DNA of 64,000 nucleotides from an uncultured Gammaproteobacteria bacterium (GTDB lineage: Bacteria; Patescibacteriota; Microgenomatia; UBA10105; UBA927). A program made the translations under genes and the position numbers. Positions 13,698 through 64,000 of the stretch are shown here, piece after piece. Positions within the stretch are counted from its first letter, which is position 1. The number at the start of each line of letters is the position of its first letter. The stretch covers positions 705,319 through 769,318 of the forward strand of contig CAZVTT010000001.1 of assembly GCA_964629685.1 (NCBI GenBank), in the 5' to 3' direction. Under the pieces are notes generated by a model that worked only from the letters and a program-made list of their open reading frames with translations, made no database searches and had not been told where the DNA came from.

Positions 13698-15992
13698 ATG
13701 AAAAAACCGACACTTTCCATTGTCATACCGGTATATAACGAAGAAGGGAACGTTAAACTTCTGCTGGAACGGATTAGCATGGCTATGAAGTCGGCAGGAA
13801 TAAAATACGAAGTCGTATTCATAGACGACCATTCTACCGATAAGACCGTAGAGATAATTAAATCCCTTTCTACCTCGTATCCGTTATCGCTCCTGAAAAA
13901 GAAAAAAGGTATGGCCCGCGGTAAAGCCAGCTCACTTCTGGCCGGATTTGCCTTTGCGAAAGCCGACGTTATTACCATGATCGATGCGGATTTGCAGTAT
14001 CCGCCCGAGGCTATTATTCCCATGTTTGAGAAAATCCTGCATGGAGCAGGGGTCGTAATCGCCAACCGCAAAAAACGTAAAACGGGATTTATCCGACAGG
14101 CAGCCAGCTTATCGTACCGCTACGTATTCGGAAACATCCTTTTGGGTTTTAAACATGACGTGCAGTCGGGGTTAAAAGTATTCCGCAAAGAAATAATCGA
14201 GCGGGTAGCTATAGCACCCAGCCAATGGATGTTTGACCTGGAATTTCTGGTCTTTGCCCGGGATGCGGGATACATTATTGAATCCCATGACATAGAATTT
14301 GCCCCGCGGCACACCGGTGCGGCCAAGATTAACGTGGTGACAGCTGCCGTAGAAATGGCACTCGCAGCAGTACAATTACGCGTCCGGAAAGACAATATTA
14401 TTCCGTTTCACGCTGAAACCAAAGAAAAACACGGAAACGGTTTCCATTTTAAAGGTCTGCCGTTCGTGAGTTATTCCGGCCTAAAACACTACGAAACTGC
14501 TTTTTTCCGGCTTTCTATCCGCCAAACCCTCTGGATTATCGGATTTTTGCTTATTTTAGCCGGAGCACTCATGATTTCGTGGCATGCGACCCTCGTCGGA
14601 CTCGTGGCACTGTTAACCGTGCTGTACTTTGTGGACATGGTGTTTAACTTTTCCCTTGTTCTCCGCAGCGTATCAAAAGATCGTGAGCTCATGATCGACG
14701 ATGAAGATACCAAAATTGCACCTGTTGGCGGTTGGCCGAAATACACTATTTTCTGCCCGCTTTATAAAGAATGGCAGGTTATTCCGCAGTTCGTCCGGGC
14801 TATGAGCCAACTGGATTATCCCAAAGACAAACTGCAGGTTATGCTCTTACTAGAAGAAGACGATACCGCCTCGGTAGAAAAAGTCGCCGAAATGGAATTA
14901 CCAAGCTACTTTACCGTGAAGGTTATTCCGCATAACAAGCCCAAAACGAAGCCCAAAGCGCTCAATTTCGGCTTACGCTATGCGACAGGGGAATATTCGG
15001 TCATTTATGATGCGGAAGACATTCCGGACCCGCTGCAGCTGAAAAAAGCCGTTCTGGCCTTTAAACGGTCTCCGTCTACGGTAAAGTGTATTCAGGCCAA
15101 GCTCAATTTCTATAATCCGCGTCAGAATTTACTGACTCGGATGTTTACCACGGAATATTCTTTGTGGTTCGACTTGGTGTTACCCGGATTACAGTCCATA
15201 GAAGCTCCTATTCCATTGGGAGGCACCTCCAATCACTTCCGCGTGTCGGATTTGCATATTCTGGGGGGCTGGGATGCCTTTAACGTGACCGAAGACTGTG
15301 ATTTGGGTATCAGGCTAGCCAAACGGGGATACCATACCGCCATCGTCAACTCAACCACTATGGAAGAAGCCAACAGTTCACTCTTGAACTGGTACGGTCA
15401 GCGTAGTCGGTGGATAAAGGGCTACATTCAGACATATATGGTTCACATGCGGGATCTGAGCCAGTTTTCGTTCTCCCGGGATAATCCTAACGGTTTTACC
15501 TTTCAGATGGTGGTGGGTGGCAAGATTTTGTCTTTGTTCATTAATCCGTTTATGTGGCTGATTACCATTAGCTACTTTTCGTTTAGGGCCACACTCGGAC
15601 CGATTATCGAAACATTCTATCCATTACCCGTGTTGTACATGGGTGTATTTTCCCTGGTATTCGGAAATTTCCTTTATATGTATTCATACATGATCGGCTG
15701 TTTCCGCCGGGAAGAATACGGACTGGTAAAGTTTGCCCTCATAACGCCATTGTACTGGCTGGCTATGAGCGCGGCAGCCTGGAAAGCCGTATGGGAAATA
15801 GTGTTTAACCCGCATTACTGGCACAAAACTACGCATGGGCTACATTTGGCTAAACAGCCTGAAGCTGCCGGTGCACATCGGTTCGGAATTGTGCAAAAGG
15901 TAAAAAAACATTTAGCCGCGCGTCGACAAAAAGCCAGACATTCACAGATCCTGCCACCGTATCGGAATATAGTCCATCCGAACGTTTCATAA
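13698..15992 (+). CDS. Two-domain GT2 fusion: an N-terminal DPM1/GtrB-like polyprenol-phosphate sugar synthase and a C-terminal processive beta-glycan synthase-like GT2 (PgaC/NodC/cellulose-synthase type), with multiple TM helices
   Basis: The N-terminal domain reads MKKPTLSIVIPVYNEEGNV...FIDDHSTDKT...MIDADLQYPP. A TM hairpin follows. The second domain carries DAED, TEDCDLG and the GQRSRWIKGY (QxxRW) motif. C-terminal TM helices follow that. Confidence 0.65.
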   Translation: MKKPTLSIVIPVYNEEGNVKLLLERISMAMKSAGIKYEVVFIDDHSTDKTVEIIKSLSTSYPLSLLKKKKGMARGKASSLLAGFAFAKADVITMIDADLQYPPEAIIPMFEKILHGAGVVIANRKKRKTGFIRQAASLSYRYVFGNILLGFKHDVQSGLKVFRKEIIERVAIAPSQWMFDLEFLVFARDAGYIIESHDIEFAPRHTGAAKINVVTAAVEMALAAVQLRVRKDNIIPFHAETKEKHGNGFHFKGLPFVSYSGLKHYETAFFRLSIRQTLWIIGFLLILAGALMISWHATLVGLVALLTVLYFVDMVFNFSLVLRSVSKDRELMIDDEDTKIAPVGGWPKYTIFCPLYKEWQVIPQFVRAMSQLDYPKDKLQVMLLLEEDDTASVEKVAEMELPSYFTVKVIPHNKPKTKPKALNFGLRYATGEYSVIYDAEDIPDPLQLKKAVLAFKRSPSTVKCIQAKLNFYNPRQNLLTRMFTTEYSLWFDLVLPGLQSIEAPIPLGGTSNHFRVSDLHILGGWDAFNVTEDCDLGIRLAKRGYHTAIVNSTTMEEANSSLLNWYGQRSRWIKGYIQTYMVHMRDLSQFSFSRDNPNGFTFQMVVGGKILSLFINPFMWLITISYFSFRATLGPIIETFYPLPVLYMGVFSLVFGNFLYMYSYMIGCFRREEYGLVKFALITPLYWLAMSAAAWKAVWEIVFNPHYWHKTTHGLHLAKQPEAAGAHRFGIVQKVKKHLAARRQKARHSQILPPYRNIVHPNVS

Positions 15993-15995
15993 CGT

Positions 15996-18488
15996 ATGTG
16001 GCAGATCAGATCGTTCGTACTATCCGGGCGCAAGCAGTTGTCTGCCAGTATAAAAACGGGCGGCGCATTTATTGCTGCCTCCATGATCGCCAATGTCGTG
16101 AACTTCCTCTACAGCGCATATCTGGGGCGTATTAGCGGATTTGAAGAGTTTGGACTTATCAGCTTGATTGCCAGCTTTCTGAATCTTTCGCAAATTCCGC
16201 TGCAGGCGTATTCCAGCACTATTTCCCACCGCACTTCGTATCTGTTCGGAAAATACGGAACACCGGCCAAGCCGTTTTGGGCTCATTTTCGGGGAGGAGC
16301 ATTAAAGCCGGCGTTACTGCTCAGTGGTGCCTGGCTGGTACTTATTCCGTTTATGGCGGCATTCTTTCAGACGGACAGATTGTTGCCGTTCTTACTGTTT
16401 ACTCCTATCTGGAGCGTAGGGGTAGCTGCTGCCGTAGATTCCGGCTTTTTGAGCGGGTCCATGCGGTTTAATACGCTGGCGGCCATGATGCTCTCCGAAG
16501 TTTCAGTGAAGTTTGCGGTAACAGTACTTATGGTGCTGATAGGCCTACCGCAATATGTGTATGTTGCGATTCCCGCCGGGATCATAACGTCGTACGTTAT
16601 CGGATGGCTCGTAGCGCGGGGGATTGTAACCAAACATATAGCACACGCGGATTTTCATTCTACCGTGTTGCCACGACGGTTTTATGCGTCATCCTTTTTA
16701 AGCAAGGTTTCCTTGGTAGCGTTTTTAACCATGGATGCCATGCTGGCCAAACATTATTTGCCGCCGAAAGAAGCGGGGCAGTATGCACTCCTTTCCCTGG
16801 TGGGAAAAATGGTATTTTTTATGGGAACATTATTTACTCAGTTCCTCACACCCCTGATCAGCAAGCATGAAGGTGCAGGCAGGAATTCGACTAAAATTTT
16901 TTGGGTAATATTACTACTCACCACTGCTGCAGTGTTGGGCGGCGTTACTACCGTCGGCGTATTCGGATATATTACTATTCCGTTCCTGTTGGGACCCAAA
17001 GCCTGGGACATTGTGGCGTATTTGCCCACATATACATTTGCCATGGGTTGTATGGCGATTGCCATGGGTTTTGTTTCGTACCATCAGTCACGACGGGTAC
17101 ACTTGTTCGCGGTTGCCAGCTTCGGCATGTCGCTGATCATGCTTACGGGCATAGTGCTGTGGCACGGATCGGTAGAAGAAATAGCCAAGGTGCTCACGGT
17201 GAGCGGAATTATTTTTCTGATGGTAACCATGTTTCTGCATCGGTTCCATGAGGCGGTTTCCACCGTAATCCGGAATATCCGTGATTTTTTGGAGCTGTTT
17301 CTGGACGATAAGCAAAAACGGGAGGGCATGCCTAATTCCCTCCGGATACTGATATTTAATTGGCGAGATACCCAACATGTTTGGGCTGGAGGAGCCGAGG
17401 AATATATTCATCAGCTCAGCAAACGGTGGGTAAAGGATGGACACAGCGTAACCGTTTTTTGCGGAAATGATCAGAAACACGCCCGGAATGAAGTAATAGA
17501 TGGTGTGCAGATGGTCCGGCGCGGGGGCTTTTACATGGTATATCTGTGGGCGGCACTGTATTATATTTTTCGCTTTCGTGGACAATTTGACGTCATCGTA
17601 GATGCCGAGAACGGAATTCCATTTTTTACCCCGCTTTTCGTGCGCAAACCCACTATATTACTTATTCATCATGTTCATCAGGACGTTTTCCGGGATCAAT
17701 TATGGTTACCGCTCGCCATGCTGGCTACATTCCTGGAAACAAAACTTATGCCCATGCTGTACCGGAATGTCCCGGTCGTAACCGTATCCGAATCATCCAA
17801 AAAAGAAATTCTGCGGGTAGGATTTGGTGTAGCCAATACGGTAACTATTGTGTATCCGGGAATAGAGCCTGAACTGTATAAAACCGTCCGCAAAACTGCG
17901 CATCCGTCAGTGCTATATCTGGGACGATTACGGCCGTACAAACAAGTAGATGTGCTTATCCGGGCATTTGCCAAAGCGCTTTCCGCTCATCCGGAAATGA
18001 AGCTGACGATAGCCGGGGAAGGCGTAAGTTTGAAAGAACTGGAAACACTTGCGAATTCGCTCAATATTTCCCACGCGGTGCAATTTACCGGCCGGGTTTC
18101 GGAACGGGAAAAAGTGGCGTTGCTTGGATCGCACTGGGTTATGGTACAGCCGTCTTCCATAGAAGGATGGGGTATTACCGTGATAGAAGCAAACGCCTGC
18201 GGTACGCCGGTGATTGCGTCTGACGTACACGGATTACGGGATTCGGTCGTAGACGAAAAGACCGGACTATTGGTGCATCCGGGAGACCATCAGAGTCTGG
18301 CTGCTGCCGTATCGTATGTGATTACCCATCATGAAGACCGGAAACAAATGACCGCTGCCGCTCTCGATTGGTCTAAATCATTTGATTGGGATCAAAGTGC
18401 CGCCGTATTTTTACAGGTTCTTAAACGCAGTATTACCGGACATAGAAAAACAATTTCCGGCAGACCAATTACGACTATTGCCCGATAA
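15996..18488 (+). CDS. Wzx-like (MOP superfamily) flippase fused to a C-terminal GT4 glycosyltransferase
   Basis: The first 430 aa or so are polytopic with flippase-like topology. The C-terminal region reads LRILIFNWRDTQHVWAGGAEEYIHQL...VQPSSIEGWGITVIEANACGTPVIASDVHGLRDSVVDEKTGLLV, which is the GT4 EX7E region. Confidence 0.6.
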   Translation: MWQIRSFVLSGRKQLSASIKTGGAFIAASMIANVVNFLYSAYLGRISGFEEFGLISLIASFLNLSQIPLQAYSSTISHRTSYLFGKYGTPAKPFWAHFRGGALKPALLLSGAWLVLIPFMAAFFQTDRLLPFLLFTPIWSVGVAAAVDSGFLSGSMRFNTLAAMMLSEVSVKFAVTVLMVLIGLPQYVYVAIPAGIITSYVIGWLVARGIVTKHIAHADFHSTVLPRRFYASSFLSKVSLVAFLTMDAMLAKHYLPPKEAGQYALLSLVGKMVFFMGTLFTQFLTPLISKHEGAGRNSTKIFWVILLLTTAAVLGGVTTVGVFGYITIPFLLGPKAWDIVAYLPTYTFAMGCMAIAMGFVSYHQSRRVHLFAVASFGMSLIMLTGIVLWHGSVEEIAKVLTVSGIIFLMVTMFLHRFHEAVSTVIRNIRDFLELFLDDKQKREGMPNSLRILIFNWRDTQHVWAGGAEEYIHQLSKRWVKDGHSVTVFCGNDQKHARNEVIDGVQMVRRGGFYMVYLWAALYYIFRFRGQFDVIVDAENGIPFFTPLFVRKPTILLIHHVHQDVFRDQLWLPLAMLATFLETKLMPMLYRNVPVVTVSESSKKEILRVGFGVANTVTIVYPGIEPELYKTVRKTAHPSVLYLGRLRPYKQVDVLIRAFAKALSAHPEMKLTIAGEGVSLKELETLANSLNISHAVQFTGRVSEREKVALLGSHWVMVQPSSIEGWGITVIEANACGTPVIASDVHGLRDSVVDEKTGLLVHPGDHQSLAAAVSYVITHHEDRKQMTAAALDWSKSFDWDQSAAVFLQVLKRSITGHRKTISGRPITTIAR

Positions 18489-18490
18489 AT

Positions 18491-19552
18491 ATGAAAAACC
18501 AACAAAAACCACCGGTAGAAGCGTCCATGATCACCAAATTATTTTCCGTGGTGTGGGCTCAATTCGGATTAGTTTGGGATAAGGCCAGGGGTATAGTCGT
18601 GGTGCCACATTTGCCTGACAGAGTAGAAGGATATCAATTTGTCCGGAGAATTCAGCCGGAAAAATCCGGCCCGATTGCCGTCGGCGTCTACGTGAACAAC
18701 CGCGGTGAACAGATTGCCGTAAAAGTGTGGGAAGGGCGATATAAAACCCGGGCGTATTTCGAAACAATACACGAAATTATTACCGTGTGGACGTTAAACC
18801 AGGTGGCTAAACGCGTGCATTTACGGATTCCGGCCGCCATTCGCCATGTAAACGTACCGAACGTGGTGACGTTCGAAGTTGCACCCCAAAAATTATTACT
18901 GGCCACGGAATGGAGTCATGGTGATTTATTTAAGACCGCAACTCCACAACAGCAGATTTCGTTATACGAACAGTGCCGGCAGTATTTTACGGCCTTATCC
19001 GCACATATTACTCCGGCGGAGCGCCGGGTATTCGGAGATAAAACCCGGAATTATATTTTCTGGTTATATCCGGCAATAATTCTGACTGCCTGCTTCCGGC
19101 ATCCGGAACTGATTCCGCCTATTCTGGGCGGTGCCATGAATACATTAAACGGGTTTAGGTATTTGGCCTCGGAGTTGGAACAGGGACTGGTGCATGGTGA
19201 TTTACACGGAAATAACGTGTTGTGGAATCAAAAAGAAACGGTGATTGTCGATACGGCGAACGTGATGTGGAGTTATACCATAATAGAATATTTAGCGACG
19301 TTGGCCTCTCCGTTAACCCCGAAAGCCCTGGAGGAATATGTAGCCATGACCGTGCGGGACCAGGTAAATAAAACGGTAAAACAGCGGGTAGCCGGAAAAT
19401 TCATATCTGCATTTATCGGTATATTCGACCTGACCATCAGACTTACGCCGGCGCATATGAACGCAGCATTACGGTTGGTGCGGGGAGAGTATTTCCCGAA
19501 TACCGTCACGGCGTTGCCGACAGCATCGAAAGTAAAACAGGTACGGGTTTAA
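18491..19552 (+). CDS. Protein-kinase-fold phosphotransferase (APH/Kdo-kinase-like); a putative glycan or small-molecule kinase
   Basis: IAVKVWEG provides a VAIK-like lysine. HGDLHGNNVLW is a Brenner/HRD-like catalytic loop. IVDTANV is a DFG-equivalent. Confidence 0.5.
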   Translation: MKNQQKPPVEASMITKLFSVVWAQFGLVWDKARGIVVVPHLPDRVEGYQFVRRIQPEKSGPIAVGVYVNNRGEQIAVKVWEGRYKTRAYFETIHEIITVWTLNQVAKRVHLRIPAAIRHVNVPNVVTFEVAPQKLLLATEWSHGDLFKTATPQQQISLYEQCRQYFTALSAHITPAERRVFGDKTRNYIFWLYPAIILTACFRHPELIPPILGGAMNTLNGFRYLASELEQGLVHGDLHGNNVLWNQKETVIVDTANVMWSYTIIEYLATLASPLTPKALEEYVAMTVRDQVNKTVKQRVAGKFISAFIGIFDLTIRLTPAHMNAALRLVRGEYFPNTVTALPTASKVKQVRV

Positions 19553-19554
19553 CT

Positions 19555-20271
19555 ATGAACTTAAAACAAATACTATTCTCATCACCCCTATTTTCTTTAT
19601 TCGGGAAGGTGGTGCGTATGCTAAAGCCGAAATCATCCTTTCGGCTGGGTACAAAAACGACTATACCGTTAAGCACAAAATACGGATTGGATCGGGGTAC
19701 ACCGGTAAACCGATATTGGATAAAAAAAGCTATAGCGTTATGGAAATCCGATATCAGGGGAACGGTACTGGAAATAGGCGACCGCCGTTATACGTCCGAA
19801 TTTGGTGGGCAGGCAGTTAAGCGGTCGGATATCCTGGATATAGTAAAAACAAACTCGGCTGCCACTATTATCGGCGATCTGCGGAATGTAAAAAAACAAA
19901 TTAAGAACAATACCTACGACTGTATTATCCTGACGCACGTATTGGGGATGATAGATGATTATTCTGCGGCCATCCGGGAATGTCACCGGATACTTAAACC
20001 GGGTGGAGTATTGCTGGTTACCGTAGCCGCGTTTAGCCCGGTACTTGAACAGGCAAGCTCGTACTGGCGATTTACCGAGGCAGGTGCCAAATATGCATTC
20101 TCAGGTGTGTTTTCGAAAACAACAGTACAAAGTTACGGAAACGTATACAGCGGACAGGCATTTTGGGTGGGAATGTCGCAGGAAGAACTCACGCGGGAAG
20201 AGCTTGATTTTGACGATGAGCGGTATCCCTGTGTCATTGCCATTCGGGCGGTGAAGGAGGACAACGTATGA
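19555..20271 (+). CDS. Class I SAM-dependent methyltransferase
   Basis: VLEIGDRRYTSEFGG is a glycine-rich motif I. LKPGGVLLVTV is a post-motif II feature. Confidence 0.55.
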   Translation: MNLKQILFSSPLFSLFGKVVRMLKPKSSFRLGTKTTIPLSTKYGLDRGTPVNRYWIKKAIALWKSDIRGTVLEIGDRRYTSEFGGQAVKRSDILDIVKTNSAATIIGDLRNVKKQIKNNTYDCIILTHVLGMIDDYSAAIRECHRILKPGGVLLVTVAAFSPVLEQASSYWRFTEAGAKYAFSGVFSKTTVQSYGNVYSGQAFWVGMSQEELTREELDFDDERYPCVIAIRAVKEDNV

Positions 20272-33220: not shown

Positions 33221-33286
33221 AGGGTAAAGGCAAAGTGCAATAAAATCTACTGTTTTAGCCTCAATTATTTAGGCCTATAGCGCCTA

Positions 33287-33314
33287 TTGCTTTTTGTTCT
33301 TTGTGTGCTATAAT
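33287..33314 (+). promoter_or_regulatory. Putative promoter: -35 TTGCTT, 16-nt spacer, extended -10 TGcTATAAT
   Basis: TTGCTT occupies 33287-33292. TGCTATAAT occupies 33306-33314. It is preceded by a weak hairpin (TAGGC...GCCTA, 33270-33286) and a T-rich run, which may act as a terminator for the upstream gene. Confidence 0.35.
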
Positions 33315-33347
33315 ACATCTCTATTGTATAAGTTATAGGACACAATT

Positions 33348-34992: not shown

Positions 34993-35049
34993 ATCCTGCT
35001 TGGTGTGGAATTTTTTTGTGTACCTCTATATAGTGGTAATAGAGACCTT

Positions 35050-38793: not shown

Positions 38794-38822
38794 GACTGCG
38801 TGTTCCTGTTACTATACTGACT

Positions 38823-40693: not shown

Positions 40694-40726
40694 TCAATCA
40701 CGCCCGTTAAAGGAGGAAAGTATTGT

Positions 40727-42025: not shown

Positions 42026-42066
42026 AGATTGGTATAAGATGGTATTAACAAACCCGTTAAGAAGCG

Positions 42067-42096: not shown

Positions 42097-42109
42097 TGGA
42101 AAGGTATTT

Positions 42110-48396: not shown

Positions 48397-48523
48397 GTAT
48401 TTCACCTCCTTTCCGATTACCATGAGCCCATCATAAAACGGTAAACTGAATTTTTGCTTAATCATTAACCTTGCGCACTTGTCAGTTTGCTGTATTGCTG
48501 CAGACTCACGTATAATTGGCGGT

Positions 48524-56898: not shown

Positions 56899-56901
56899 AG
56901 T

Positions 56902-57840: not shown

Positions 57841-58580
57841 CGATTACTGCAATTATTATTGCCAAGAATGAAGCGGAACTTATTCCGCTTTGTTTGTCCG
57901 GCCTTTCCTGGGTAGACGAAATAATTGTAATTGATAATATTTCCAGTGATGAGACTGTATCACTTGCAAAAAAAGCTGGCGCGAAGGTGTTTACGGTTTC
58001 ATCGAATGATTTTTCCGTATTACGCACTGCGGGTTTACATCACGCTCGCGGCACCTGGGTTCTGTATATAGATGCAGATGAACGGGTAACCCCTGCATTA
58101 AAACAGGAAATATTGGGTATCATTGCAGCCGGAGAAAAAGCCCATATTACCGGATATTATGTACAACGAAATAATATTTATCTGGGGCACCCGTGGCCCA
58201 CGCGCGATAAAATGCAGCGTTTATTTTTGAAAAATGCGTTTAAGGGGTGGCATGGGAAATTACACGAAAGCGCGGAAATTGAAGGGAGCTATGGTACGTT
58301 AACAGAACCTTTACTGCACTATACGCACCGAAGCCTGGAGCAGATGGCGGCCAAAACAAATGAATGGTCGGAGGTAGAAGCCGATCTGCGACTGCAGGCA
58401 CATCATCCTCCCGTGGTATGGTGGCGCTTAATACGGGTATTTGTGACCGGTTTTTTTGCAACGTTTGTTGCTCAAAAAGGATGGAAAGCCGGTACGGTAG
58501 GTTGGATCGAAAGTATATATCAGGGATTCAGTTACGTCGTTACCTATGCCAAGCTTTGGGAAAAACAACAGACTGCATAA
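57825..58580 (+). CDS. GT2-family glycosyltransferase
   Basis: ITAIIIAKNEAELIPLCLSGLSWVDEIIVIDNISSDET...YIDADERV. The start at 57825 has a GGAGGA RBS 8 nt upstream. Confidence 0.55.
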   Translation: MAESVTITAIIIAKNEAELIPLCLSGLSWVDEIIVIDNISSDETVSLAKKAGAKVFTVSSNDFSVLRTAGLHHARGTWVLYIDADERVTPALKQEILGIIAAGEKAHITGYYVQRNNIYLGHPWPTRDKMQRLFLKNAFKGWHGKLHESAEIEGSYGTLTEPLLHYTHRSLEQMAAKTNEWSEVEADLRLQAHHPPVVWWRLIRVFVTGFFATFVAQKGWKAGTVGWIESIYQGFSYVVTYAKLWEKQQTA

Positions 58581-60894
58581 CTATTTAAAACCGGGAAAAC
58601 TACTGCCGTTTGCCGTGGTTATTTGCCTTTGGTTGTTTTTTTCTGCGCCGTTTTGGTTAAAAGACTTAATGCCTTTCCCGACCAAGTACCTGGTTTCATT
58701 TTTTCCGCCCTGGAGCGCTTCCTATGCTATGCCGGTTAAGAATGCGGCTATGCCGGATGTGATTACGCAAATATATCCTTGGAAATATTTAACCATACAA
58801 ACCTGGAGTCTGGCACAAATACCGTTGTGGAACCCGTATAGTTTTGCTGGAACATTTCAGGCGGCAAATTATCAATCGGCCGTATTTTCGCCGTTTAATA
58901 TATTTTATGCGATGTTTCCGCCGTCCGTCGCTTGGAGCGTGGTAGTGCTGCTGCAACCGTTACTGGCAGGTTGGGGTATGTATTTGCTGCTCAGAGCACT
59001 CGGACGATCCAGGTTGGCCCGTATTGTCGGCAGTGTCGCATTTATGTTTTGTGGTTTTATGACTACCTGGATGGCGTATGGAACGCTGGGGCATGCTGCG
59101 TTATGGTTACCCTGGATATTTGCCGTTGTGTTGCAGTACGAACGTAAACCCGGATTCTTGTGGGGGGCATGTCTGGCGTTCGGATTGGCATTATCTTTTT
59201 TATCCGGACATTTTCAGATAAGCCTGTATGTAGCTGCCGCCACGCTTCTATTTATTCTCTTCAGAATGCGTTGGGGTCTATTAGGACGCAAAGGGATAAA
59301 CGCTTTGGGGTTTGTTTTAACAGGAGTATTGATTTCGCTGCCTCAATTATGGCTTACGCTGGATGCCTACACGCAATCTGTCCGCAGCAGCAGTTTTGTG
59401 AAGGGTGAAATTATTCCCTGGTCATACCTGGTAACCATGATTGCTCCAGATTTTTATGGAAATCCGGTAACCAGGAATGATTGGTTCGGTCATTACGCGG
59501 AGTGGGCGACGTATGTTGGGGTTGTTCCATGGATATTGGCAATGGTTGCCATTTTTTTCCGTAGGACGAAAGAAACGGTTGTATTTATGTTGATTGCGCT
59601 GGGAGGTTTGTTATTGGCACTTCCTACCCCTTTTTCCGACGTGCTGTTTATGTTAAGGATTCCTGTTTTGTCCACTAGTGCCGCATCACGCATAGTCATA
59701 CTGGTGAGTTTCTCCTTGTCGGTTCTGGCGGCGTTCGGCTTTGACGTCATAAAAGAAACTATTCCTACAGTCCAGCGGAAACGCTATTGGTGGTTTATCG
59801 GGGGGATAGGCGGTTTGTGGATCATTATTTGGACAATATTGCTGGTGTTTCATCCGTTGGAAGCGGAAAAAATGGCAGTGGCAAAGCGGAATCTGATATT
59901 GCCGTCAATAACTATGATAACGGGTTTGGTTTGTCTTTTTTTCGTTACGTATACCCGGAAAGCATGGCGGAATATCGGACTGCTCCTGTTAGTTATCATT
60001 TCCGTTTTGGAAATGTACAGATACGTAACCAAATGGTTACCGTTTGAACCGGAAGAATATTTCTATCCCGAAACGGCAGTGCTTGGATATTTAACGAAGC
60101 GGGTAGGAAATGAACGTGTGTTCGGAAATATCGGTGGAGAAGTCGGTGTGCGCTTTAATATTCCTCTGATTGAAGGATATGATGCCATGTACCAGGGGAG
60201 ATATGGAGAATTTATCCGATCTGCAGGTTCCGGCAAATACGAACAGTCCGGCAGATCCGTAGTTAATTTAGAAAAGCATGGGTTATATGCGGAGCAGGTA
60301 CTACAAATGCTCGGCGTACGGTACGTGGTTCACCGTAAGAGTGATGGCAGAAGTCCCTGGGCTTATCCTGTTTGGCTGTTTGATCATTATAGACAGGTGT
60401 ACACGGATGACTATTATGAAGTATATGAAAATACTAAAGCGCTTCCCCGGGTTTATCTGGCCTCGGACATATTTGTCAGAAGCGCGAAAGAAGATATTCT
60501 TACTACCGTATTTTCACCGGAGTTTAATTACGCGACTACTGTAGTATTGGAATCGAGTCCAACACAAACGCCGGCCACGGGAAACGGCAGGGCACAAATA
60601 GTGTCGTATTCGCCAAACACGGTTAGCATCACGTCAGAATCTGAAGTCCCGAAAGTATTAGTATTATCGGATGTATACGAAAAGGGATGGAAAGCGACGG
60701 TAAACGGCGTTCCCGTTCCCGTATATAGAGCAAATTATGCGTTTCGGGCAGTGTCTGTTCCCGCCGGTAAAGTGACGGTAGAATTTATGTACCAACCGAA
60801 TGGTGTCCGTTATGGTTTACCGATAGCCGGATTGGTGATGATTCTGCTTTTTGGTGGGTTGATAAAACAATGGTATGAAAATAGGCATCTATAA
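58546..60894 (+). CDS. YfhO-family polytopic membrane glycosyltransferase (GT-C fold)
   Basis: 782 aa. The N-terminal membrane domain and C-terminal extracytoplasmic domain show the YfhO-like layout. It is a clear paralog of the 61922 ORF. Confidence 0.55.
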   Translation: MPSFGKNNRLHNYLKPGKLLPFAVVICLWLFFSAPFWLKDLMPFPTKYLVSFFPPWSASYAMPVKNAAMPDVITQIYPWKYLTIQTWSLAQIPLWNPYSFAGTFQAANYQSAVFSPFNIFYAMFPPSVAWSVVVLLQPLLAGWGMYLLLRALGRSRLARIVGSVAFMFCGFMTTWMAYGTLGHAALWLPWIFAVVLQYERKPGFLWGACLAFGLALSFLSGHFQISLYVAAATLLFILFRMRWGLLGRKGINALGFVLTGVLISLPQLWLTLDAYTQSVRSSSFVKGEIIPWSYLVTMIAPDFYGNPVTRNDWFGHYAEWATYVGVVPWILAMVAIFFRRTKETVVFMLIALGGLLLALPTPFSDVLFMLRIPVLSTSAASRIVILVSFSLSVLAAFGFDVIKETIPTVQRKRYWWFIGGIGGLWIIIWTILLVFHPLEAEKMAVAKRNLILPSITMITGLVCLFFVTYTRKAWRNIGLLLLVIISVLEMYRYVTKWLPFEPEEYFYPETAVLGYLTKRVGNERVFGNIGGEVGVRFNIPLIEGYDAMYQGRYGEFIRSAGSGKYEQSGRSVVNLEKHGLYAEQVLQMLGVRYVVHRKSDGRSPWAYPVWLFDHYRQVYTDDYYEVYENTKALPRVYLASDIFVRSAKEDILTTVFSPEFNYATTVVLESSPTQTPATGNGRAQIVSYSPNTVSITSESEVPKVLVLSDVYEKGWKATVNGVPVPVYRANYAFRAVSVPAGKVTVEFMYQPNGVRYGLPIAGLVMILLFGGLIKQWYENRHL

Positions 60895-61921
60895 TCCGTA
60901 TCTTAATACGCTTGGCGGTGGAGAATACTATCTGCTTTCCGTTGCGGCTGCTTTGGCAGAACGACACGATGTAAGTGTTTTTTGGAATGATTCCACAATA
61001 CTTTCCAAAATAGGAGTGCGGTTTGGTTTAGCTACGGAAAAAATCCGGATTGTCCCAAATTTCTGGACGGATTCACTGGTACGGAAACTTTCTGCCAGTG
61101 CAGACTATGACGCCATATTGTGGGTTACTGACGGAAGCATACCCGTTACGTTAGCACAAAAATTGATAGTAGTAGCACAGTATCCTTTTCCGGGTCCTGT
61201 CTCGCTCGGCCAAAGAATAAAGCTTCACAGAACGACAGCGGTAGTATGTTATTCGGAATTCGTAAAACAACACATTGATGTTCGCTGGGGCGTACAGGCA
61301 AAGGTTATTACCCCCGGTATAAATATTCATGAGTATGCTACCGAAGCCAAACAACCGGTAATACTGTCTGTGGGCAGATTTACCCGGGGAAAAAATGCAA
61401 AAAAGCACGAAGAAATGATTACGGCGTTTAAGCATGTTAGGCATAGGGGTATTCCCTTGTCACTCGTATTGGCCGGCGCGGTATTACCTGATGATGAAGC
61501 GTACGTGCGGGAAATTTCCACTTTGACCTCCGGGTATCCTATCAGCCTGAAAACAAATATTCCGGTTACTGAGCTCCGTAAGTTATATGCTTCCTCCTTG
61601 TTCTATTGGCATGCAGCAGGATATGGTGAAAATCTGGATACCCATCCCGAAAGGGCCGAACATTTCGGTATAACTACGGTAGAAGCCATGGCTTCCGGTT
61701 GTATCCCCTGCGTGTTTTCCGGCGGAGGGCAGAAGGAAATTGTCCGGAATGGTATAGATGGGTTTACCTGGACAACTATTCCTGAATTAGTAACTATAAC
61801 GGCATCGGCTTATCGGAACCGTACGGATTGGGAGCCTATGGCAAAAGCCGCCAGATTACGGTCCGAAGATTACAGAATAGAGAAAACGGTGCGGCAATTT
61901 ACAGCACTCATAGAAGGGTAA
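60875..61921 (+). CDS. GT4-family glycosyltransferase
   Basis: MKIGIYNPYLNTLGGGEYYLLSVAAAL...ILSVGRFTRGKNAKKHEEMI...FGITTVEAMASGCIPCVFSGGG. Confidence 0.55.
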   Translation: MKIGIYNPYLNTLGGGEYYLLSVAAALAERHDVSVFWNDSTILSKIGVRFGLATEKIRIVPNFWTDSLVRKLSASADYDAILWVTDGSIPVTLAQKLIVVAQYPFPGPVSLGQRIKLHRTTAVVCYSEFVKQHIDVRWGVQAKVITPGINIHEYATEAKQPVILSVGRFTRGKNAKKHEEMITAFKHVRHRGIPLSLVLAGAVLPDDEAYVREISTLTSGYPISLKTNIPVTELRKLYASSLFYWHAAGYGENLDTHPERAEHFGITTVEAMASGCIPCVFSGGGQKEIVRNGIDGFTWTTIPELVTITASAYRNRTDWEPMAKAARLRSEDYRIEKTVRQFTALIEG

Positions 61922-64000
61922 ATGATAACAAAACGCGTAAAATATTATATTGCTTTATTGGTATTGGTAATTGCTGCCTTAGGCTTTTTTAAAGATACCT
62001 GGGTGCAGGGAAAATTGCCGATTCCGACGGATGCTATGGTTGGTCTGTATCATCCGTATCGGGATACTTTTGCGGAGCAGTTCCCCCGTGGTGTTCCGTT
62101 TAAAAATTTTTTGACAACCGATCCGATCCGACAGCAAATACCTTGGCGTAAGTTAGCCGTGGACCAATGGAAACAAGGCAATATACCCTGGTGGAATCCA
62201 AGCTCCTTTTCCGGTATGCCCATGGCAGCAAACATTCAGGCAGCGGTATTTTATCCGTTAAATATTGTTTTTTTTGCGCTTCCGTTTCCGACTGCTTGGA
62301 CCATCCTTATTATCCTTCAGCCATTAATGGCTGCGTTATTCATGTTTGTCTATCTGCGGGGTCGATCATTTAGGTTGGCTTCTGCTACATTCGGAAGTGT
62401 AATCTGGGCGTTTTGCGGATTTCATATTTCGTGGCTTACATGGGGTACTATTAATCACGTTACTTTATGGATCCCGTTAGCACTATTCTGCGCCGACATA
62501 CTGCGAAAAGCGGCAGATGCGCCCACGCCAAAGGGATCCTTTCTTAAGCAAATGGTATCTCACGTAAATGTCCTGGCAGGACCGGCTCTGGCTCTGGGGG
62601 GAATCATGACTTTGCAGGTGTTTGCCGGCCATATCCAGATGGCGTTGTATAGTATTGTCCTTATTATTTGCTACATTATTTTTTTTCCTGCAGACAGAAG
62701 CAAACATAAAATTAATAGAGTACGATTAAGTATCGGCTTGGGCACCGTTGTTGTTTCTACCGCTCTGATATCCGCTATTCAGTTAATCCCATTGGGATTG
62801 TTACTGGCTCAATCCAGCAGAGTTGATCAGTTCTTGAATTGGCAAAAGGAAGGGTGGTTTTTACCGTGGCAACATCTGGTGCAGTTTATAGCTCCGGATT
62901 TCTTCGGGAATCCTGCGACATTAAACTATTGGGGAATATGGAATTATGGTGAATTTATCGGATATATAGGACTGATTCCGTTCACATTTGCACTTTCTGC
63001 GTTACTTCAAGCAAGGAGAAATCAGTTTGTCCGTTTTTGGGGAAGCATACTTGGGTTAACTTTGTTATTCATGCTCCCATGGTTCGGTTCTGAGATGCTC
63101 TATATTTTGCATTTGCCGGTTCTGTCCGTACTGCAACCTACCCGGTTGATGGTTATCGTTTCTCTTTCACTTGTGGTACTCGCGGTATACGGATTTGATG
63201 AATGGATGAAATTGCGGCTTATACCCAAAAAGACGGTTGCCATACTGAGTTTAGTTTTCCTATTGTTGTGGGGGTTTATTTATTTTTCAGGGCGTCACGC
63301 ATCCGGAGACCTTTTGACAAATATATTGGTTACCAAAAGAAACATGGTAATTCCTTCCGGATTATTTTTAATTGAGATAGTGGTGCTTATTGCAGCGCAG
63401 TTCAGTATACGACTGCATGATAGGAAATTTTTTTCCGGTTTGGTGCTGGTGGTATTTATGTTGGCATTAGCGGATTTATACCGGATGGGTTGGAAATTCG
63501 TACCATTTACGGATCCCCGGTATTTTTATCCGGAATCTAAAGCGATTACCTTTCTGCAGCTACAGCCTAAACCATTCAGGATAATGACTACAGATGACAG
63601 AATCCTGGCACCGAATATATCCGGATATTACCATCTGGAAAGTATAGAAGGATATGATCCCCTGTATCTAAGCAGATACGAACGGTTAATAGCCGCTTCG
63701 GAGAAGGGTTCTGCCGACGTAAATCCACCATATGGTTACAATCGGATTATTACTCCCCGCAATGTTACCTCACCTGTTATCCCGTTACTAAATGTGAAAT
63801 ATGTATTGTCTCTGACGGAAATTAATACTCCCAACTTGAGTGAAGTATTTCGCGAAGGGACTACCAGAATCTATGAATTAACATCCACATTACCCCGCGC
63901 ATATTTTGCTGCCACGGTAAAGCGCGTGGGTCCGGGGGAAGATGTTTTAGCAAAATTGTTTTTGCCAGAATTTACAGGAACAACAGCCTGGGTAGAAGAA
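61922..64000 (+). CDS. YfhO-family polytopic membrane glycosyltransferase, N-terminal about 690 aa. The 3' end lies outside the window.
   Basis: Frame 2 is open from the ATG at 61922 to the window end; it is absent from the ORF track only because no stop occurs in-window. Motifs match the 58546 product: IPTDAMVGLYHPYRD vs FPTKYLVSFFPPWSAS; IPWWNPSSFSGMPMAANIQAAVFYP vs IPLWNPYSFAGTFQAANYQSAVFSP; IAPDFFGNPAT vs IAPDFYGNPVT. Confidence 0.55.
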   Translation, partial: MITKRVKYYIALLVLVIAALGFFKDTWVQGKLPIPTDAMVGLYHPYRDTFAEQFPRGVPFKNFLTTDPIRQQIPWRKLAVDQWKQGNIPWWNPSSFSGMPMAANIQAAVFYPLNIVFFALPFPTAWTILIILQPLMAALFMFVYLRGRSFRLASATFGSVIWAFCGFHISWLTWGTINHVTLWIPLALFCADILRKAADAPTPKGSFLKQMVSHVNVLAGPALALGGIMTLQVFAGHIQMALYSIVLIICYIIFFPADRSKHKINRVRLSIGLGTVVVSTALISAIQLIPLGLLLAQSSRVDQFLNWQKEGWFLPWQHLVQFIAPDFFGNPATLNYWGIWNYGEFIGYIGLIPFTFALSALLQARRNQFVRFWGSILGLTLLFMLPWFGSEMLYILHLPVLSVLQPTRLMVIVSLSLVVLAVYGFDEWMKLRLIPKKTVAILSLVFLLLWGFIYFSGRHASGDLLTNILVTKRNMVIPSGLFLIEIVVLIAAQFSIRLHDRKFFSGLVLVVFMLALADLYRMGWKFVPFTDPRYFYPESKAITFLQLQPKPFRIMTTDDRILAPNISGYYHLESIEGYDPLYLSRYERLIAASEKGSADVNPPYGYNRIITPRNVTSPVIPLLNVKYVLSLTEINTPNLSEVFREGTTRIYELTSTLPRAYFAATVKRVGPGEDVLAKLFLPEFTGTTAWVEE

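Follow-up and report, generated by a model that had tools for sequence, protein, structure and literature searches.

[quoted passage not shown] The host is described as a tiny-genome, groundwater-type CPR bacterium. Encoded in the window are 32 sugar-transferring enzymes, 13 of which are GT-C membrane enzymes predicted to act outside the cell. Two conserved, operon-like envelope-glycan clusters lie next to each other on the plus strand, and a third cluster of low GC content (block A) lies on the minus strand (Table 1). The plus-strand region from 13698 onward (block B) consists of two separately conserved units. Across both clusters the genes overlap or abut at their starts and stops and gaps are few, so each cluster is likely to be an operon. 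The promoter candidate upstream of cluster 1 agrees with the sigma-70 consensus at 11 of 12 positions, by consensus match only. No description of either cluster was found in the searchable literature.

Table 1. Features of the window. Numbers used as gene names are positions in the window.
Feature	Coordinates	Strand	Evidence
Block A, low-GC (30-40%) glycan cluster: GT-Cs 2181 (PMT_2) and 4599 (DUF2206), GT2 10207, GT4s, GT14-like gene, GH-like gene	209..13081	-	Pfam, NCBIfam
Sigma-70-like promoter candidate	13444..13472	+	TTGACA-17-TACAAT with TG extension
Two-domain GT2	13698..15992	+	Pfam, two GT2 domains
MOP (Wzx-like) flippase domain (aa 1-450) fused to GT4	15996..18488	+	Homologues, Pfam, PDB
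Variable middle: APH-like kinase-fold protein, methyltransferase, PgaB/IcaB-like deacetylase 21029, CsaB-like pyruvyl transferase 24050; GT2s 20268, 23193, 25273; GT4 22009	18491..26199	+	Pfam, NCBIfam
GT-C 26288, extra divergent paralogue of core GT-C 27817	26288..27820	+	Fold
GT-C 27817, core, orthologue of conserved gene	27817..29403	+	Paralogy with 26288
GT-C 29393, core, PMT_2-like	29393..30982	+	Pfam, orthologues, hhalign
Secreted protein 30982	30982..32235	+	Signal peptide; CarboxypepD_reg beta-sandwich domain after a possible GH-A-like core
Two paralogous secreted proteins with Pro/Thr/Ser-rich linkers	32327..34439	+	Sequence
Sortase	34231..34992	+	Pfam Sortase, 79.5 bits
CAP-domain protein, Pro/Thr-rich linker, C-terminal transmembrane segments	35005..36078	+	Pfam CAP, sequence
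rmlA, rmlC (start of cluster 2)	36356..37566	+	Pfam NTP_transferase 201 bits, dTDP_sugar_isom 89 bits
GT-C 37582, Gpi18/GT76-like	37582..38793	+	Homologues with PF04188 (Gpi18-like family); fold
rmlB, rmlD, UDP-glucose 6-dehydrogenase, Rmd-like GDP-4-keto-6-deoxymannose reductase 42080	38709..43066	+	rmlB, NCBIfam RmlB 476 bits, above equivalog cutoff; rmlD, Pfam; dehydrogenase, NCBIfam NDP-sugar dehydrogenase 442 bits; reductase, PDB 2pk3, 4e-87
DPMS-type polyprenyl-P-sugar synthase with GtrA-like 4-TM domain	43076..44185	+	Pfam GT2 and GtrA_DPMS_TM
GT-C 44238, PMT_2/ArnT-like	44238..45914	+	PMT_2 49 bits; DE motif after first transmembrane helix
Short soluble DPMS/GtrB/ArnC-like GT2 45911	45911..46660	+	PDB, NCBIfam ranking
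GT-C 46670, GT87-like	46670..47827	+	GT87 26.7 bits (cutoff 25)
GT-C 48479, PMT_2 (true start probably ATG at 48524)	48479..50044	+	PMT_2 63.6 bits; DE motif
Paralogous PTPS_related-family GT-Cs 50037 and 51590	50037..53254	+	51590, PTPS_related 41 bits
Short DPMS-like GT2 53232, paralogue of 45911	53232..53978	+	PDB; 32% identity to 45911
MOP (Wzx-type) flippase 53932	53932..55413	+	Polysacc_synt_3 176 bits; NCBIfam MOP flippase
Cytoplasmic GT2s 55410, 56902 (rhamnosyltransferase-like) and 57741 (GmaR/SunS-like)	within 55410..58580	+	
Small Pro/Thr-rich membrane protein 56299	within 55410..58580	+	Sequence
GT-C 58546, YfhO	58546..60894	+	YfhO 92.5 bits
GT4 60875	60875..61921	+	Pfam
GT-C 61922, YfhO paralogue	61922..64000, continues past window end	+	Full gene 778 aa

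Composition and conservation of the clusters

The core of cluster 1, from 13698 to about 35000, is present with its order kept in 47 to 53 of 53 related genome loci, mostly from Patescibacteria. At its start, a DPMS-like GT2 and a BcsA-like processive GT2 are joined in one protein. Next comes a fusion of a MOP flippase with a GT4, then several GT2s and two GT-Cs, and last a secreted protein, an LAxTG protein and a sortase. In PDB searches the N-terminal domain of 13698 (residues 5-210) matches DPMS, ArnC and GtrB and so resembles a polyprenyl-phosphate-sugar synthase, and the C-terminal domain (residues 344-582) matches BcsA at 2.6e-16 and is that of a membrane-embedded, BcsA/PgaC-like processive synthase. 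The protein carries the motifs DAED (438), TED (531) and QRSRW (568), the last two being processive-synthase motifs in the C-terminus; its homologues occur at 47 of the 53 loci with a median identity of 48%. Homologues of the N-terminus of 15996 bear PF01943, under the name O-antigen/teichoic acid export protein, and its GT4 domain has Pfam matches and PDB matches to MshA, PimA and PimB (homologues at 51 of 53 loci). TAA plus 3 nucleotides separate the two genes in the window. Their homologues form one four-domain ORF of 1520-1640 aa in 22 loci, which links their activities to a single pathway. The middle of the cluster is more variable: the GT2 family of 20268, 23193 and 25273 is found at 37 of the 53 loci, and the deacetylase and the kinase-like protein at 17 each.

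Secreted proteins follow the GT-Cs of cluster 1. The 30982 family is present at 49 of 53 loci; its core may be a clan GH-A-like glycoside hydrolase, with the motif LGEFGAP and invariant E144, E146 and E244, and its orthologues match CarboxypepD_reg (25 of 47) and, weakly, Glyco_hydro_cc (4 of 47). The family of the two paralogous secreted proteins is found at 30 of 53 loci. One of them, 33348, has a sortase sorting signal at its end, made up of LAATG followed by hydrophobic residues and a basic tail; a loose L[A/P]xTG-type motif lies within the last 60 residues of 29 of 32 family members, in strict L[A/P]xTG form in 28 of those. A sortase follows the cluster at 27 of 53 loci.

Cluster 2 (about 23 kb, 38709-61921) combines genes for 6-deoxyhexose and UDP-GlcA with three DPMS-like GT2s, one flippase and between six and eight GT-Cs. 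In 23 of 25 long metagenomic contigs, every gene from 38709 to 60875 has a one-to-one orthologue (37-86% identity), with gene order and orientation unchanged. Cluster 1, at the front of block B, is distinct from it and is conserved across the genomes retrieved, which are largely from Patescibacteria. Paralogues within the locus are 28-32% identical, compared with 41-62% for orthologues elsewhere, which indicates that the duplications are old and fixed. The gene-for-gene collinearity of cluster 2 and the conserved order of cluster 1 together point to a fixed multi-step pathway, or to two.

Identity of the GT-C enzymes

The earlier note counted at least 12 GT-Cs in 50 kb. The whole window encodes 13 large, polytopic GT-C-superfamily membrane proteins, but only 11 of them lie in 13698-64000; the two that the note added from block A are borne out by their Pfam scores. 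Beyond the window, the same contig has two further GT-C genes at most 6 kb downstream, one PMT/PMT_2 and one a third PTPS_related-like gene.

For eight of the 13, the protein's own sequence scores at or above the Pfam gathering threshold: 2181(-), 44238 and 48479 (PMT_2), 4599(-) (DUF2206), 51590 (PTPS_related), 58546 (YfhO) and, marginally, 29393 (PMT_2, 26.8 bits; cutoff 26.1) and 46670 (GT87). Orthologues of 46670 match GT87 in 19 of 39 cases and those of 29393 match PMT_2 in 8 of 37, in neither case with any other family. The 29393 family also aligns with the fold-verified 26288 family (hhalign probability 94%). PTPS_related and DUF2206 are presumably members of the Pfam GT-C clan, a placing supported for PTPS_related by cross-matches in the family of 50037, whose 43 members match PTPS_related (28), YfhO (3) and PMT_2 (2).

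Two proteins were assigned by fold. The AlphaFold2 models of 26288, which has no Pfam match, and of 37582 (pLDDT 86 and 95) find GT-C structures as all of their top 33 and 28 Foldseek PDB matches, respectively, with TM-scores against solved GT-C structures of only 0.4-0.5. Matches of 26288 include ArnT, ALG12, Pmt4, EmbA/B/C, AglB, STT3 and AftB. Invariant residues include E66, R73, P98 and D99 in 26288, and D70 of the NMDGDHY motif is invariant in 37582. The remaining three were placed by full-length paralogy: 27817 with 26288 (31% identity over 459 aa, E 9e-42), 50037 with 51590 (28%, E 9e-46) and 61922, whose own Pfam match to YfhO is faint, with 58546 (30% over 699 aa, E 2e-80). It is 27817, not 26288, that better matches the anchor gene; genes of its type are present at 53 of 53 loci, and genes of the 29393 type lie immediately 3' of them at all 53. 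Most of the 13 have acidic motifs after their first transmembrane helix, transmembrane counts being from a crude hydropathy scan. By Pfam, fold and paralogy none of the 13 resembles a transporter, which supports their assignment as GT-C enzymes rather than permeases. Two other polytopic domains that might be mistaken for GT-Cs belong to the MOP (Wzx-like) flippases: 53932, and residues 1-450 of 15996.

A possible extracytoplasmic assembly line

Polyprenyl-phosphate sugar synthases rank first for five GT2 domains, the N-terminus of 13698, 43076, 45911, 53232 and, in block A, 10207, with P. furiosus DPMS, ArnC, GtrB, PgfS, AglJ and PpgS as top matches, all far below the NCBIfam equivalog cutoffs. 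The match of 43076 to P. furiosus DPMS (5mlz) is full-length and includes the GtrA-like transmembrane domain (E 2e-39), and 10207 is an AglJ-like, DPMS-type GT2 (AglJ, 169 bits). The best PDB matches of 45911 are DPMS, ArnC and GtrB (about 1e-14 to 1e-15), and PgfS, ArnC and Dol-P-hexose transferase rank first among NCBIfam models, each below its own cutoff; 53232 matches DPMS (1e-18), then ArnC. Both proteins are without a membrane segment, and no GacJ- or DPM3-like partner was identified for either. The earlier list of DPM1/GtrB-like enzymes thus holds for four of its members. Its fifth member, 57825 (gene 57741), is rejected, as it best matches the protein/peptide glycosyltransferases GmaR and SunS, not DPMS, ArnC or GtrB.

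The claim that nearly every GT-C is preceded by such a GT2 fails: it is true of only two of the 13, 44238 (behind 43076) and 46670 (behind 45911), and 53232 precedes the MOP flippase rather than a GT-C. With about five donor synthases for 13 GT-Cs, there is no one-to-one pairing. This ratio, the conservation of both clusters and the old duplications also speak against the many independent, combinatorial modules that had been proposed. Extracytoplasmic glycosylation from lipid-linked monosaccharides, proposed at the same time, is the natural reading of donor-synthase-like GT2s, GT-Cs and flippase candidates together, and homology supports it.

The best overall explanation, in which we place moderate confidence, is that two conserved envelope-glycan clusters form a fixed extracytoplasmic GT-C assembly line, whose product is probably a surface sugar coat of an uncharacterised kind. 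Judging from homology, cytoplasmic enzymes would make dTDP-L-rhamnose, UDP-glucuronate and a GDP-6-deoxyhexose, and the four block B GT2 domains would place single sugars on polyprenyl phosphate. Soluble GT2 and GT4 enzymes, joined in cluster 1 by the BcsA/PgaC-like domain, would produce a primer or backbone that is either lipid-linked or membrane-extruded. The flippases (15996 N-terminus and 53932) and the GtrA-like domain of 43076 would carry lipid-linked intermediates outward, where GT-Cs acting in a fixed series at the outer face, three from cluster 1 and eight from cluster 2, would each add one defined sugar from donors common to several of them.

A glycopolymer anchored to the wall or the membrane is our best guess at the acceptor. 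A serious alternative is that some of the enzymes glycosylate Pro/Thr/Ser-rich surface proteins encoded at the locus, including the sortase-anchored LAxTG protein; in its favour, Pro/Thr-rich linkers and the LAxTG protein with its sortase are conserved beside cluster 1, and the CAP-domain protein 35005 is a candidate substrate. The polymer made by the processive synthase may be a separate one that has nothing to do with the GT-Cs. Among all window ORFs of at least 150 aa, Pfam found no family of initiating phosphoglycosyl transferase, Wzy or LCP, which fits the preferred route through monophosphate-linked donors; a phosphoglycosyl transferase, Wzy or ligase could be encoded elsewhere in the genome.

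In its logic the proposed assembly line resembles mycobacterial LM/LAM and arabinogalactan synthesis, or else Gram-positive wall-polysaccharide glycosylation and the decoration of rhamnose-rich wall polysaccharides. GT-C-rich loci sharing a few lipid-linked donors are already known from mycobacteria. The locus is indeed larger than the gtrABC or csbB/yfhO units, as noted earlier, and the clusters are not sets of interchangeable three-gene units. The density of GT-C genes, which had been called unusual, is high next to that of model bacteria yet ordinary within this lineage: of 25 related metagenomic loci, 21 have six GT-C genes per approximately 21 kb, equal to the maximum in the window.

Two conserved gene clusters

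Block B of the window (13698-64000) consists of two conserved, tightly packed, operon-like clusters that happen to lie side by side in this genome. The parts of both clusters are of known kinds; their arrangement was not met with in the open-access literature searched. The window is almost fully coding, and 32 of its 52 genes encode glycosyltransferases (Pfam, every ORF of at least 150 aa): 13 candidate GT-C enzymes (polytopic membrane glycosyltransferases), 12 GT2, 6 GT4 and one GT14-like enzyme. Neither tRNA genes nor known RNA elements (Rfam) were found in the window.

Cluster 1, the core cluster (13698 to about 35000), was surveyed in one genome per species with the 26288/27817 family. The best 80 of 350 relatives gave 53 loci of about 21 kb, which share a recurring gene order (Table) and carry only 2-4 GT-Cs per 21 kb. 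The small secreted protein family and the sortase lie directly downstream of the core GT-C pair. In 22 of about 53 related loci or genomes, one ORF of 1520-1640 aa covers the homologs of both 13698 and 15996; its domains are a DPMS-like (polyprenyl-phosphate-sugar-synthase-like) GT2, a processive GT2 resembling BcsA, a MOP flippase and a GT4. In the window the two genes are split by a TAA codon and 3 nt (15990-15995). We know of no described enzyme with this synthase-synthase-flippase-GT4 architecture, and the fusion may show how the synthesis and flipping of lipid-linked sugars are coupled.

Cluster 2 (about 36356/38709-61921) was surveyed by scanning metagenomes with the 50037 family, which yielded 216 relatives; 25 loci of at least 18 kb were compared. 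Twenty-three of the 25 are collinear, gene for gene, with 38709-60875 of the window, and their genes are one-to-one orthologs with identities of 37-86%. Six GT-Cs per approximately 21 kb, the window's own maximum, are found in 21 of the 25. This comparison already indicates a GT-C complement that does not vary among or inside species of the clade, and the retention of both clusters in many uncultured relatives implies that a defined surface glycan is under strong selection.

The sole non-conserved insertion in cluster 2, absent from the 25 related loci, is a minus-strand gene located in the gap of 651 bp at 47828-48478. Its product is a small secreted protein, helix-prone and highly charged, whose signal peptide reads MKKQLAITALAITLAGAGLF. 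Separately, the metagenome contigs Ga0265293_10000204 (L157) and Ga0210057_1000411 (L160) hold variants of cluster 2 with up to nine GT-C-like ORFs in about 21 kb; they have extra PTPS_related-like and YfhO-like copies and are without the 43076/44238 pair.

Features of the window and of related loci. Numbers are gene starts or intervals in the window unless a locus name precedes them; (-) indicates the minus strand. Motifs are acidic motifs after the first transmembrane helix or invariant acidic residues of the family.
Position	Assignment	Cluster 1 loci (of 53)	Motif
2181 (-)	GT-C, PMT_2 (Pfam)		
4599 (-)	GT-C, DUF2206 (Pfam)		none clear by simple scan
10207	DPMS-like GT2		
13698	DPMS-like GT2 (N-terminus) fused to processive synthase	47 (median identity 48%)	
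13698-18488	counterpart of the single-ORF enzyme, split in the window		
L077:531-5453; L064:1366-6234; L008:715-5364	examples of the single-ORF enzyme		
15996	MOP flippase (N-terminal 450 residues), GT4	51	
18491-19552	APH/RIO-like kinase fold	17	
20268, 23193, 25273	GT2 family	37	
21029	PgaB/IcaB-like deacetylase		
24050-25303	CsaB-like polysaccharide pyruvyl transferase	2	
26288	GT-C		D99
27817	GT-C	53	
29393	GT-C, PMT_2, marginal (Pfam)	53	DAE
30982-32235	secreted protein, possibly GH-A-like	49	
32327, 33348 (region 32327-34992)	small secreted LAxTG protein family	30	
L024:14262-14852; L062:15037-15561	examples of the LAxTG family		
	sortase	27	
37582	GT-C		DGD; D70
38709-60875	order in cluster 2: rmlB, rmlD, ugd, 42080, 43076, 44238, 45911, 46670, 48479, 50037, 51590, 53232, 53932, 55410, (56299), 56902, 57741, 58546, 60875		
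43076	DPMS-like GT2		
44238	GT-C, PMT_2 (Pfam)		DE
45911	DPMS-like GT2		
46670	GT-C, GT87, marginal (Pfam)		none clear by simple scan
47881-48534 (-)	small secreted protein		
48479	GT-C, PMT_2 (Pfam)		DE
50037	GT-C		DDGD; D36
51590	GT-C, PTPS_related (Pfam)		DD
53232	DPMS-like GT2		
53932	MOP flippase		
58546	GT-C, YfhO (Pfam)		none clear by simple scan
61922	GT-C		none clear by simple scan
L004:8645-9589	Exosortase_EpsH family		

Enzymes of the clusters

Pfam, fold and paralogy agree that the 13 membrane proteins are GT-Cs and not transporters, as the earlier note had proposed. Its figure of at least 12 in 13698-64000 was slightly high: 11 lie in that interval, and two in block A (209-13081) bring the window to 13. 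Two further GT-C genes, one PMT/PMT_2 and one a third PTPS_related-like gene, lie within 6 kb downstream of the window. Eight of the 13 reach the Pfam gathering score for a GT-C family on their own sequence (Table). We take PTPS_related and DUF2206 to be members of the GT-C clan and GT87 to be the PimE family. The marginal assignments of 29393 and 46670 are supported by their orthologs and by profile comparison. All 13 have 5-18 hydrophobic segments in a crude hydropathy scan.

The other five (26288, 27817, 37582, 50037 and 61922) have no Pfam match even at E up to 10. Two of the 13 proteins were modeled with AlphaFold2, 26288 (25 homologs, pLDDT 86) and 37582 (pLDDT 95). Both models are all-helical membrane bundles, and their first 33 and 28 Foldseek matches in the PDB, respectively, are GT-C enzymes only, at probabilities of 0.9-1.0 and TM-scores of 0.4-0.5. 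Homologs of 37582 carry PF04188 (the Gpi18-like family), 27817 is a full-length paralog of 26288 (E 9e-42), and 61922 is a paralog of the YfhO protein 58546 (E 2e-80). 50037 is a full-length paralog of 51590 and belongs to a very large family (8,302 representatives at E up to 1e-3); in a sample of 43 members, PTPS_related was found in 28, YfhO in three and PMT_2 in two. Profile links between PTPS_related and the 26288 family, and between the GT87-like and Gpi18-like families, are weak (probability 23-24%). 26288 and 27817 represent a fold-verified GT-C family missed by current Pfam models.

Five GT2 domains with a GT-A fold and a DxD motif (Table) have DPMS, ArnC, GtrB, PgfS, AglJ or PpgS as their closest characterized relatives in the NCBIfam ranking and a PDB sequence search. 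43076 matches the DPMS of P. furiosus end to end, including the GtrA-like membrane domain (GtrA_DPMS_TM). All synthase-like GT2s score far under the NCBIfam equivalog cutoffs (for example AglJ, 169 vs 325; PgfS, 72 vs 500), so the assignment holds at the level of the family and does not name a sugar or a specific enzyme. In 13698 the N-terminal domain is joined to a membrane synthase. For 45911, 53232 and 10207 the crude hydropathy scan predicts no transmembrane segment, and no membrane partner was identified for them. The gene at 57825 (57741), previously listed as a DPM1-like GT2, is instead matched best by GmaR and SunS, as is its paralog 55410.

The C-terminal part of 13698 has the features of a processive family 2 synthase of the BcsA/PgaC/chitin synthase type. 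It contains DAED (438-441), TED (531-533) and QRSRW (568-572) with flanking transmembrane segments, and it matches BcsA (2.6e-16) and PgaC (1.5e-31 over model positions 33-353 of 407). Two polytopic domains outside the GT-Cs are MOP (Wzx-like) flippases, namely 53932 and the first 450 residues of 15996; the latter was considered as a twelfth GT-C of block B and rejected because its homologs are MOP flippases. No standalone GtrA gene was found in the window, where gaps of more than 80 bp were checked. Among ORFs of at least 150 aa in the window, none is a phosphoglycosyl transferase (Bac_transf, or Glycos_transf_4 of the MraY/WecA type) and none has a Pfam match to Wzy_C/O-antigen ligase, Wzz or LytR_cpsA_psr. 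ABC transporter genes were not found in the window either, which of the parts of a Wzx/Wzy locus holds the MOP flippases only.

Downstream of the core GT-Cs, 30982 has a signal peptide, a CarboxypepD_reg domain, invariant E144, E146 and E244, and a GEFG-type motif. The motif and the invariant glutamates are reminiscent of clan GH-A, and the protein may have a GH-A-like core; four of 47 orthologs give a weak Glyco_hydro_cc match, and no PDB relative was found by sequence or profile search. In the 32327/33348 family, 29 of 32 members have an L[A/P]xTG-type motif within the last 60 residues in a loose search. In 28 the motif is strict and is followed by a hydrophobic (TM) segment and a basic tail; the tails are Gly/Ser/Thr-rich. 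LAxTG is a sorting signal of the class E sortase type.

Three other genes are of note. The kinase-like gene at 18491 lies between the flippase-GT4 gene and the GT2s, and its product may be a sugar or lipid kinase of the pathway. In Bacillus, S-layer proteins with SLH domains are anchored by a wall polysaccharide that CsaB pyruvylates; the scarcity of homologs of the CsaB-like gene in related loci marks it as a lineage-specific addition to cluster 1. In cluster 2, 42080 is Rmd/GMD-like (PDB 2pk3, 4e-87) and is not a UDP-GlcA decarboxylase, so an Arn-like pentose (Ara4N) module of ugd, decarboxylase, ArnC and ArnT at 40727-44238 was rejected.

Proposed assembly route and alternatives

From gene identities, fold, synteny and motifs we infer the following mechanism. 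Nucleotide sugars (dTDP-L-Rha, UDP-GlcA and a GDP-6-deoxyhexose) would be made first, and polyprenyl phosphate would be charged with single sugars by the DPMS-like GT2s. A primer or backbone would come from the processive synthase and from GT2 and GT4 enzymes of the cytoplasm. The lipid-linked species would be exported by the MOP flippases and the GtrA-like domain, and sugars would be added outside by a fixed series of GT-Cs, several per shared donor. The absence of a phosphoglycosyl transferase, Wzy and LCP ligase from the window, together with the synthase-flippase-transferase fusion, favors this monophosphate-linked-donor route. The preferred candidate for the acceptor is a wall- or membrane-anchored glycopolymer; surface proteins rich in Pro/Thr/Ser, among them the LAxTG protein beside the core GT-Cs, are a credible alternative.

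Mycobacteria and corynebacteria build LM/LAM and arabinogalactan with Ppm1, the GT4 enzymes PimA and PimB, and the GT-Cs PimE, MptA/B/C, EmbA/B/C and AftA-D. The likenesses to the window are serial GT-Cs outside the membrane that share few polyprenyl-P donors, a GT4-made cytoplasmic primer and clustered GT-C genes; Emb, Aft and PimE are also structural (Foldseek) matches of the window GT-Cs. Unlike mycobacteria, the source organism is monoderm with a genome of about 1 Mb, and its locus has no decaprenyl-P-arabinose pathway genes and no one-to-one orthology. Its GT-C genes are denser, and a processive GT2 synthase and MOP flippases lie in the same clusters. In its logic the proposed route would come nearest to this assembly and to the way Gram-positive bacteria decorate wall polymers by multi-component transmembrane glycosylation (PMC8035078, PMC5836110, PMC11127046).

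The three-component systems GtrABC, CsbB-GtcA-YfhO, GtlA/GtlB, GacI/J/K/L and PgfS/PgfM have been reviewed (PMC8035078; also PMC5836110, PMC11127046, PMC11092751). Like them, the window has a GT-A polyprenyl-P-sugar synthase, GtrA- and Wzx-type flippases, PMT_2- and YfhO-type GT-Cs, two adjacent synthase-then-GT-C pairs, and short soluble GT2s as in GacI. Those systems are units of two or three genes with one synthase to one GT-C, whereas here fixed collinear, operon-like sets of 20 genes are found, with 11-15 GT-Cs per approximately five synthases. The window also adds GT87-like, Gpi18-like, PTPS_related and the unnamed 26288/27817 GT-C families, and a known acceptor pathway (LTA, WTA or O-antigen) is absent from it. 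The locus works like multi-component transmembrane glycosylation systems and is not a simple member of them.

Partial likenesses to other systems are also seen. The D,D,TED,QxxRW signature of the 13698 C-terminus is shared with synthase-dependent exopolysaccharide systems (BcsA cellulose, PgaC/IcaA PNAG). The PgaB/IcaB deacetylase and dedicated glycoside hydrolase of PNAG systems have counterparts in 21029 and perhaps, by a weak assignment, in the GH-A-like 30982. In contrast to these systems, the 13698 synthase shares its polypeptide with a DPMS-like GT2, to which many genomes add a MOP flippase and GT4; two GT-Cs, an LAxTG protein and a sortase are encoded alongside it, and the window is without PilZ, BcsB and outer-membrane parts. 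With the rhamnose-rich wall polysaccharide loci of streptococci and lactococci (PMC10821137, bioRxiv 10.1101/180810) the window shares rmlABCD, rhamnosyltransferase-like GT2s, a Wzx-type flippase, and GtrB-like/GT-C side-chain systems within the locus. It differs from them in far more GT-Cs, in added GDP-6-deoxyhexose (Rmd-like) and UDP-GlcA genes, and in the absence from the window of RgpA-F-type ABC export genes and of an initiating RgpG/TagO.

The core cluster could be an undescribed surface-glycoconjugate pathway, although we consider it doubtful. It would combine a four-activity enzyme (in many cases a single chain of about 1550 aa), a pair of dedicated GT-Cs whose family lies outside current Pfam models, a secreted GH-like protein, and an LAxTG protein with its sortase. 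It would be conserved in the retrieved, largely Patescibacteria, genomes; with a second line of eight GT-Cs, added in the window's lineage, it would build a polymer or glycoprotein that is a principal component of the surface of these episymbionts, by an architecture unlike characterized polysaccharide pathways.

Protein O-glycosylation, resembling actinobacterial Pmt or streptococcal PgfS/PgfM, is rather unlikely. The PMT_2, YfhO and other GT-Cs would move sugars from polyprenyl-P onto Ser/Thr in disordered Pro/Thr/Ser-rich linkers of secreted or sortase-anchored proteins, and the locus does encode five proteins with such linkers (32327, 33348, 35005, 56299 and the minus-strand 47881), although such proteins are common in secretomes and are weak evidence. 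The LAxTG family and the sortase directly downstream of two core GT-Cs, and PgfS among the top NCBIfam matches of the GT2s, are also consistent with it. One gene just downstream of the window carries PF02366 (PMT), but in Pfam scans the window proteins reach PMT_2 (PF13231) only, and neither PF02366 nor a MIR domain was found in them. Further, known systems for protein O-mannosylation or O-glucosylation need far less than the 11 or more GT-Cs, the processive synthase, the numerous cytoplasmic GT2 and GT4 enzymes and the three pathways to sugar nucleotides seen here.

Haloarchaeal Agl N-glycosylation runs on dolichyl monophosphate, and the AglJ/G/I/E-AglR-AglB-AglS pathway of Haloferax is the model for an archaeal-type route, which we regard as improbable here. 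A DPMS/AglJ-like GT2 would start an oligosaccharide on polyprenyl-P, GT2 and GT4 enzymes would extend it, a MOP flippase would flip it, one GT-C would transfer it as a block onto a protein or a polymer, and the others would finish it. The window shares with Agl the DPMS-like initiating or charging GT2s, a Wzx-like flippase, GT-Cs and the lack of a phosphoglycosyl transferase, and the flippase-GT4 fusion, joined also to a DPMS-like GT2 in 22 loci, fits such a route. NCBIfam matches to AglJ (10207, 169 bits), Agl16 (22009, 165 bits) and AglM (40727, 364 bits) point the same way, but all are under the equivalog cutoffs, and the strongest AglJ-like gene is in block A, outside both clusters. No AglB/STT3/PglB-type oligosaccharyltransferase with a C-terminal soluble domain was detected, AglB is no better a match to the GT-C models than ArnT, ALG and Emb are, and the context (sortase, LAxTG) is bacterial.

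The earlier note read the locus as many independent modules forming a combinatorial system. Spelled out, this would mean that every GtrB/GT-C module has a donor and a target to itself, that the modules were acquired or duplicated separately, and that the surface decoration varies between strains. Several distinct GT-C families, the differing GC of block A (which suggests separate acquisition), the extra or rearranged GT-Cs of some loci (L157 and L160) and two adjacent pairs, 43076/44238 and 45911/46670, agree with such modules. These are, however, the only cases (2 of 13) in which a DPMS-like GT2 directly precedes a GT-C, where nearly every one had been said to be so preceded, and approximately five donor synthases serve 13 GT-Cs. 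The paralogs are old, as their identities (28-32%) are below those of orthologs (41-62%). These observations, with the ordered one-to-one orthologs of cluster 2 across contigs and of cluster 1 in related genome loci, argue against independent or combinatorial modules, for which we see little chance. A reading of the locus as an ordinary Wzx/Wzy- or ABC-type polysaccharide cluster, with transporters or permeases as the majority of its polytopic proteins, has a negligible chance and is already refuted by the Pfam scans, the fold searches and the 50037 family matches: two polytopic domains are MOP flippases, but none of the 13 proteins matches a transporter family even with E allowed up to 10, the fold searches of 26288 and 37582 give transporters no probability above 0.16, and Wzy, phosphoglycosyl transferase and ABC transporter genes are absent from the window.

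Novelty, lineage and block A

The literature searched, which comprised open-access papers, contained no relevant description of these clusters in CPR bacteria. Nothing in it described a conserved operon-like cluster of eight GT-Cs, a four-domain enzyme in a core cluster that the retrieved CPR genomes share, a GT-C family invisible to Pfam, or linkage to an LAxTG protein and sortase. For Microgenomates, Méheust et al. note only that sortase is near-ubiquitous (PMC6744442). For one complete Microgenomates genome, 29 glycosyltransferases in all are reported (PMC7143001), fewer than the 32 of the window alone. A recent study terms the glycosylation processes of Saccharibacteria "unexplored" (bioRxiv 10.1101/2024.11.25.624915). 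CPR/Patescibacteria make up a large share of bacterial diversity and live attached to other cells, and their surface chemistry is essentially unknown. Core cluster homologs appear to be present in records labeled Saccharibacteria; some species of that lineage are in culture and genetically tractable. If the cultivated species carry the cluster, the hypothesis would be directly testable by knockout, Tn-seq essentiality, glycan analysis and host-binding assays.

Patescibacteria/CPR supply the overwhelming majority of core-protein homologs; among titled genomes, Candidatus Roizmanbacteria come closest (mean identity 48-49% over five proteins). The same proteins on an NCBI contig of 953,690 bp point to a very small genome. 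About 30 of 80 records with a CPR-type core cluster (L006-L085) bear the title "uncultured Gammaproteobacteria", "Pseudomonadales" or "Bdellovibrionales". Judged by gene content and contig size, which look Patescibacteria-like, they are probably mislabeled.

GC is 30-40% in block A (minus strand; 30-34%, up to 40% at 10-13 kb) vs 43-49% in block B (plus strand). The jump from 30-34% to 45-49% raised the suspicion of a chimeric assembly at the junction, which is not supported, since proteins of either block are recorded on an NCBI contig with the same length of 953,690 bp, and on a 90-kb Logan contig (SRR14271333). Block A has archaeal-flavored, sub-threshold matches: AglJ at 10207, DUF2206 at 4599 and a weak DUF1616 at 10958. 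These matches, the low GC and the opposite strand suggest that block A may be a horizontally acquired glycan island. In a related contig, L004, an Exosortase_EpsH-family gene lies approximately 2.4 kb beyond the counterpart of the window's first gene, upstream of position 1, beside further GT4, Wzx flippase and sugar-modifying genes. These neighbors place block A within a polysaccharide locus of greater length, which may include a second system for protein sorting.
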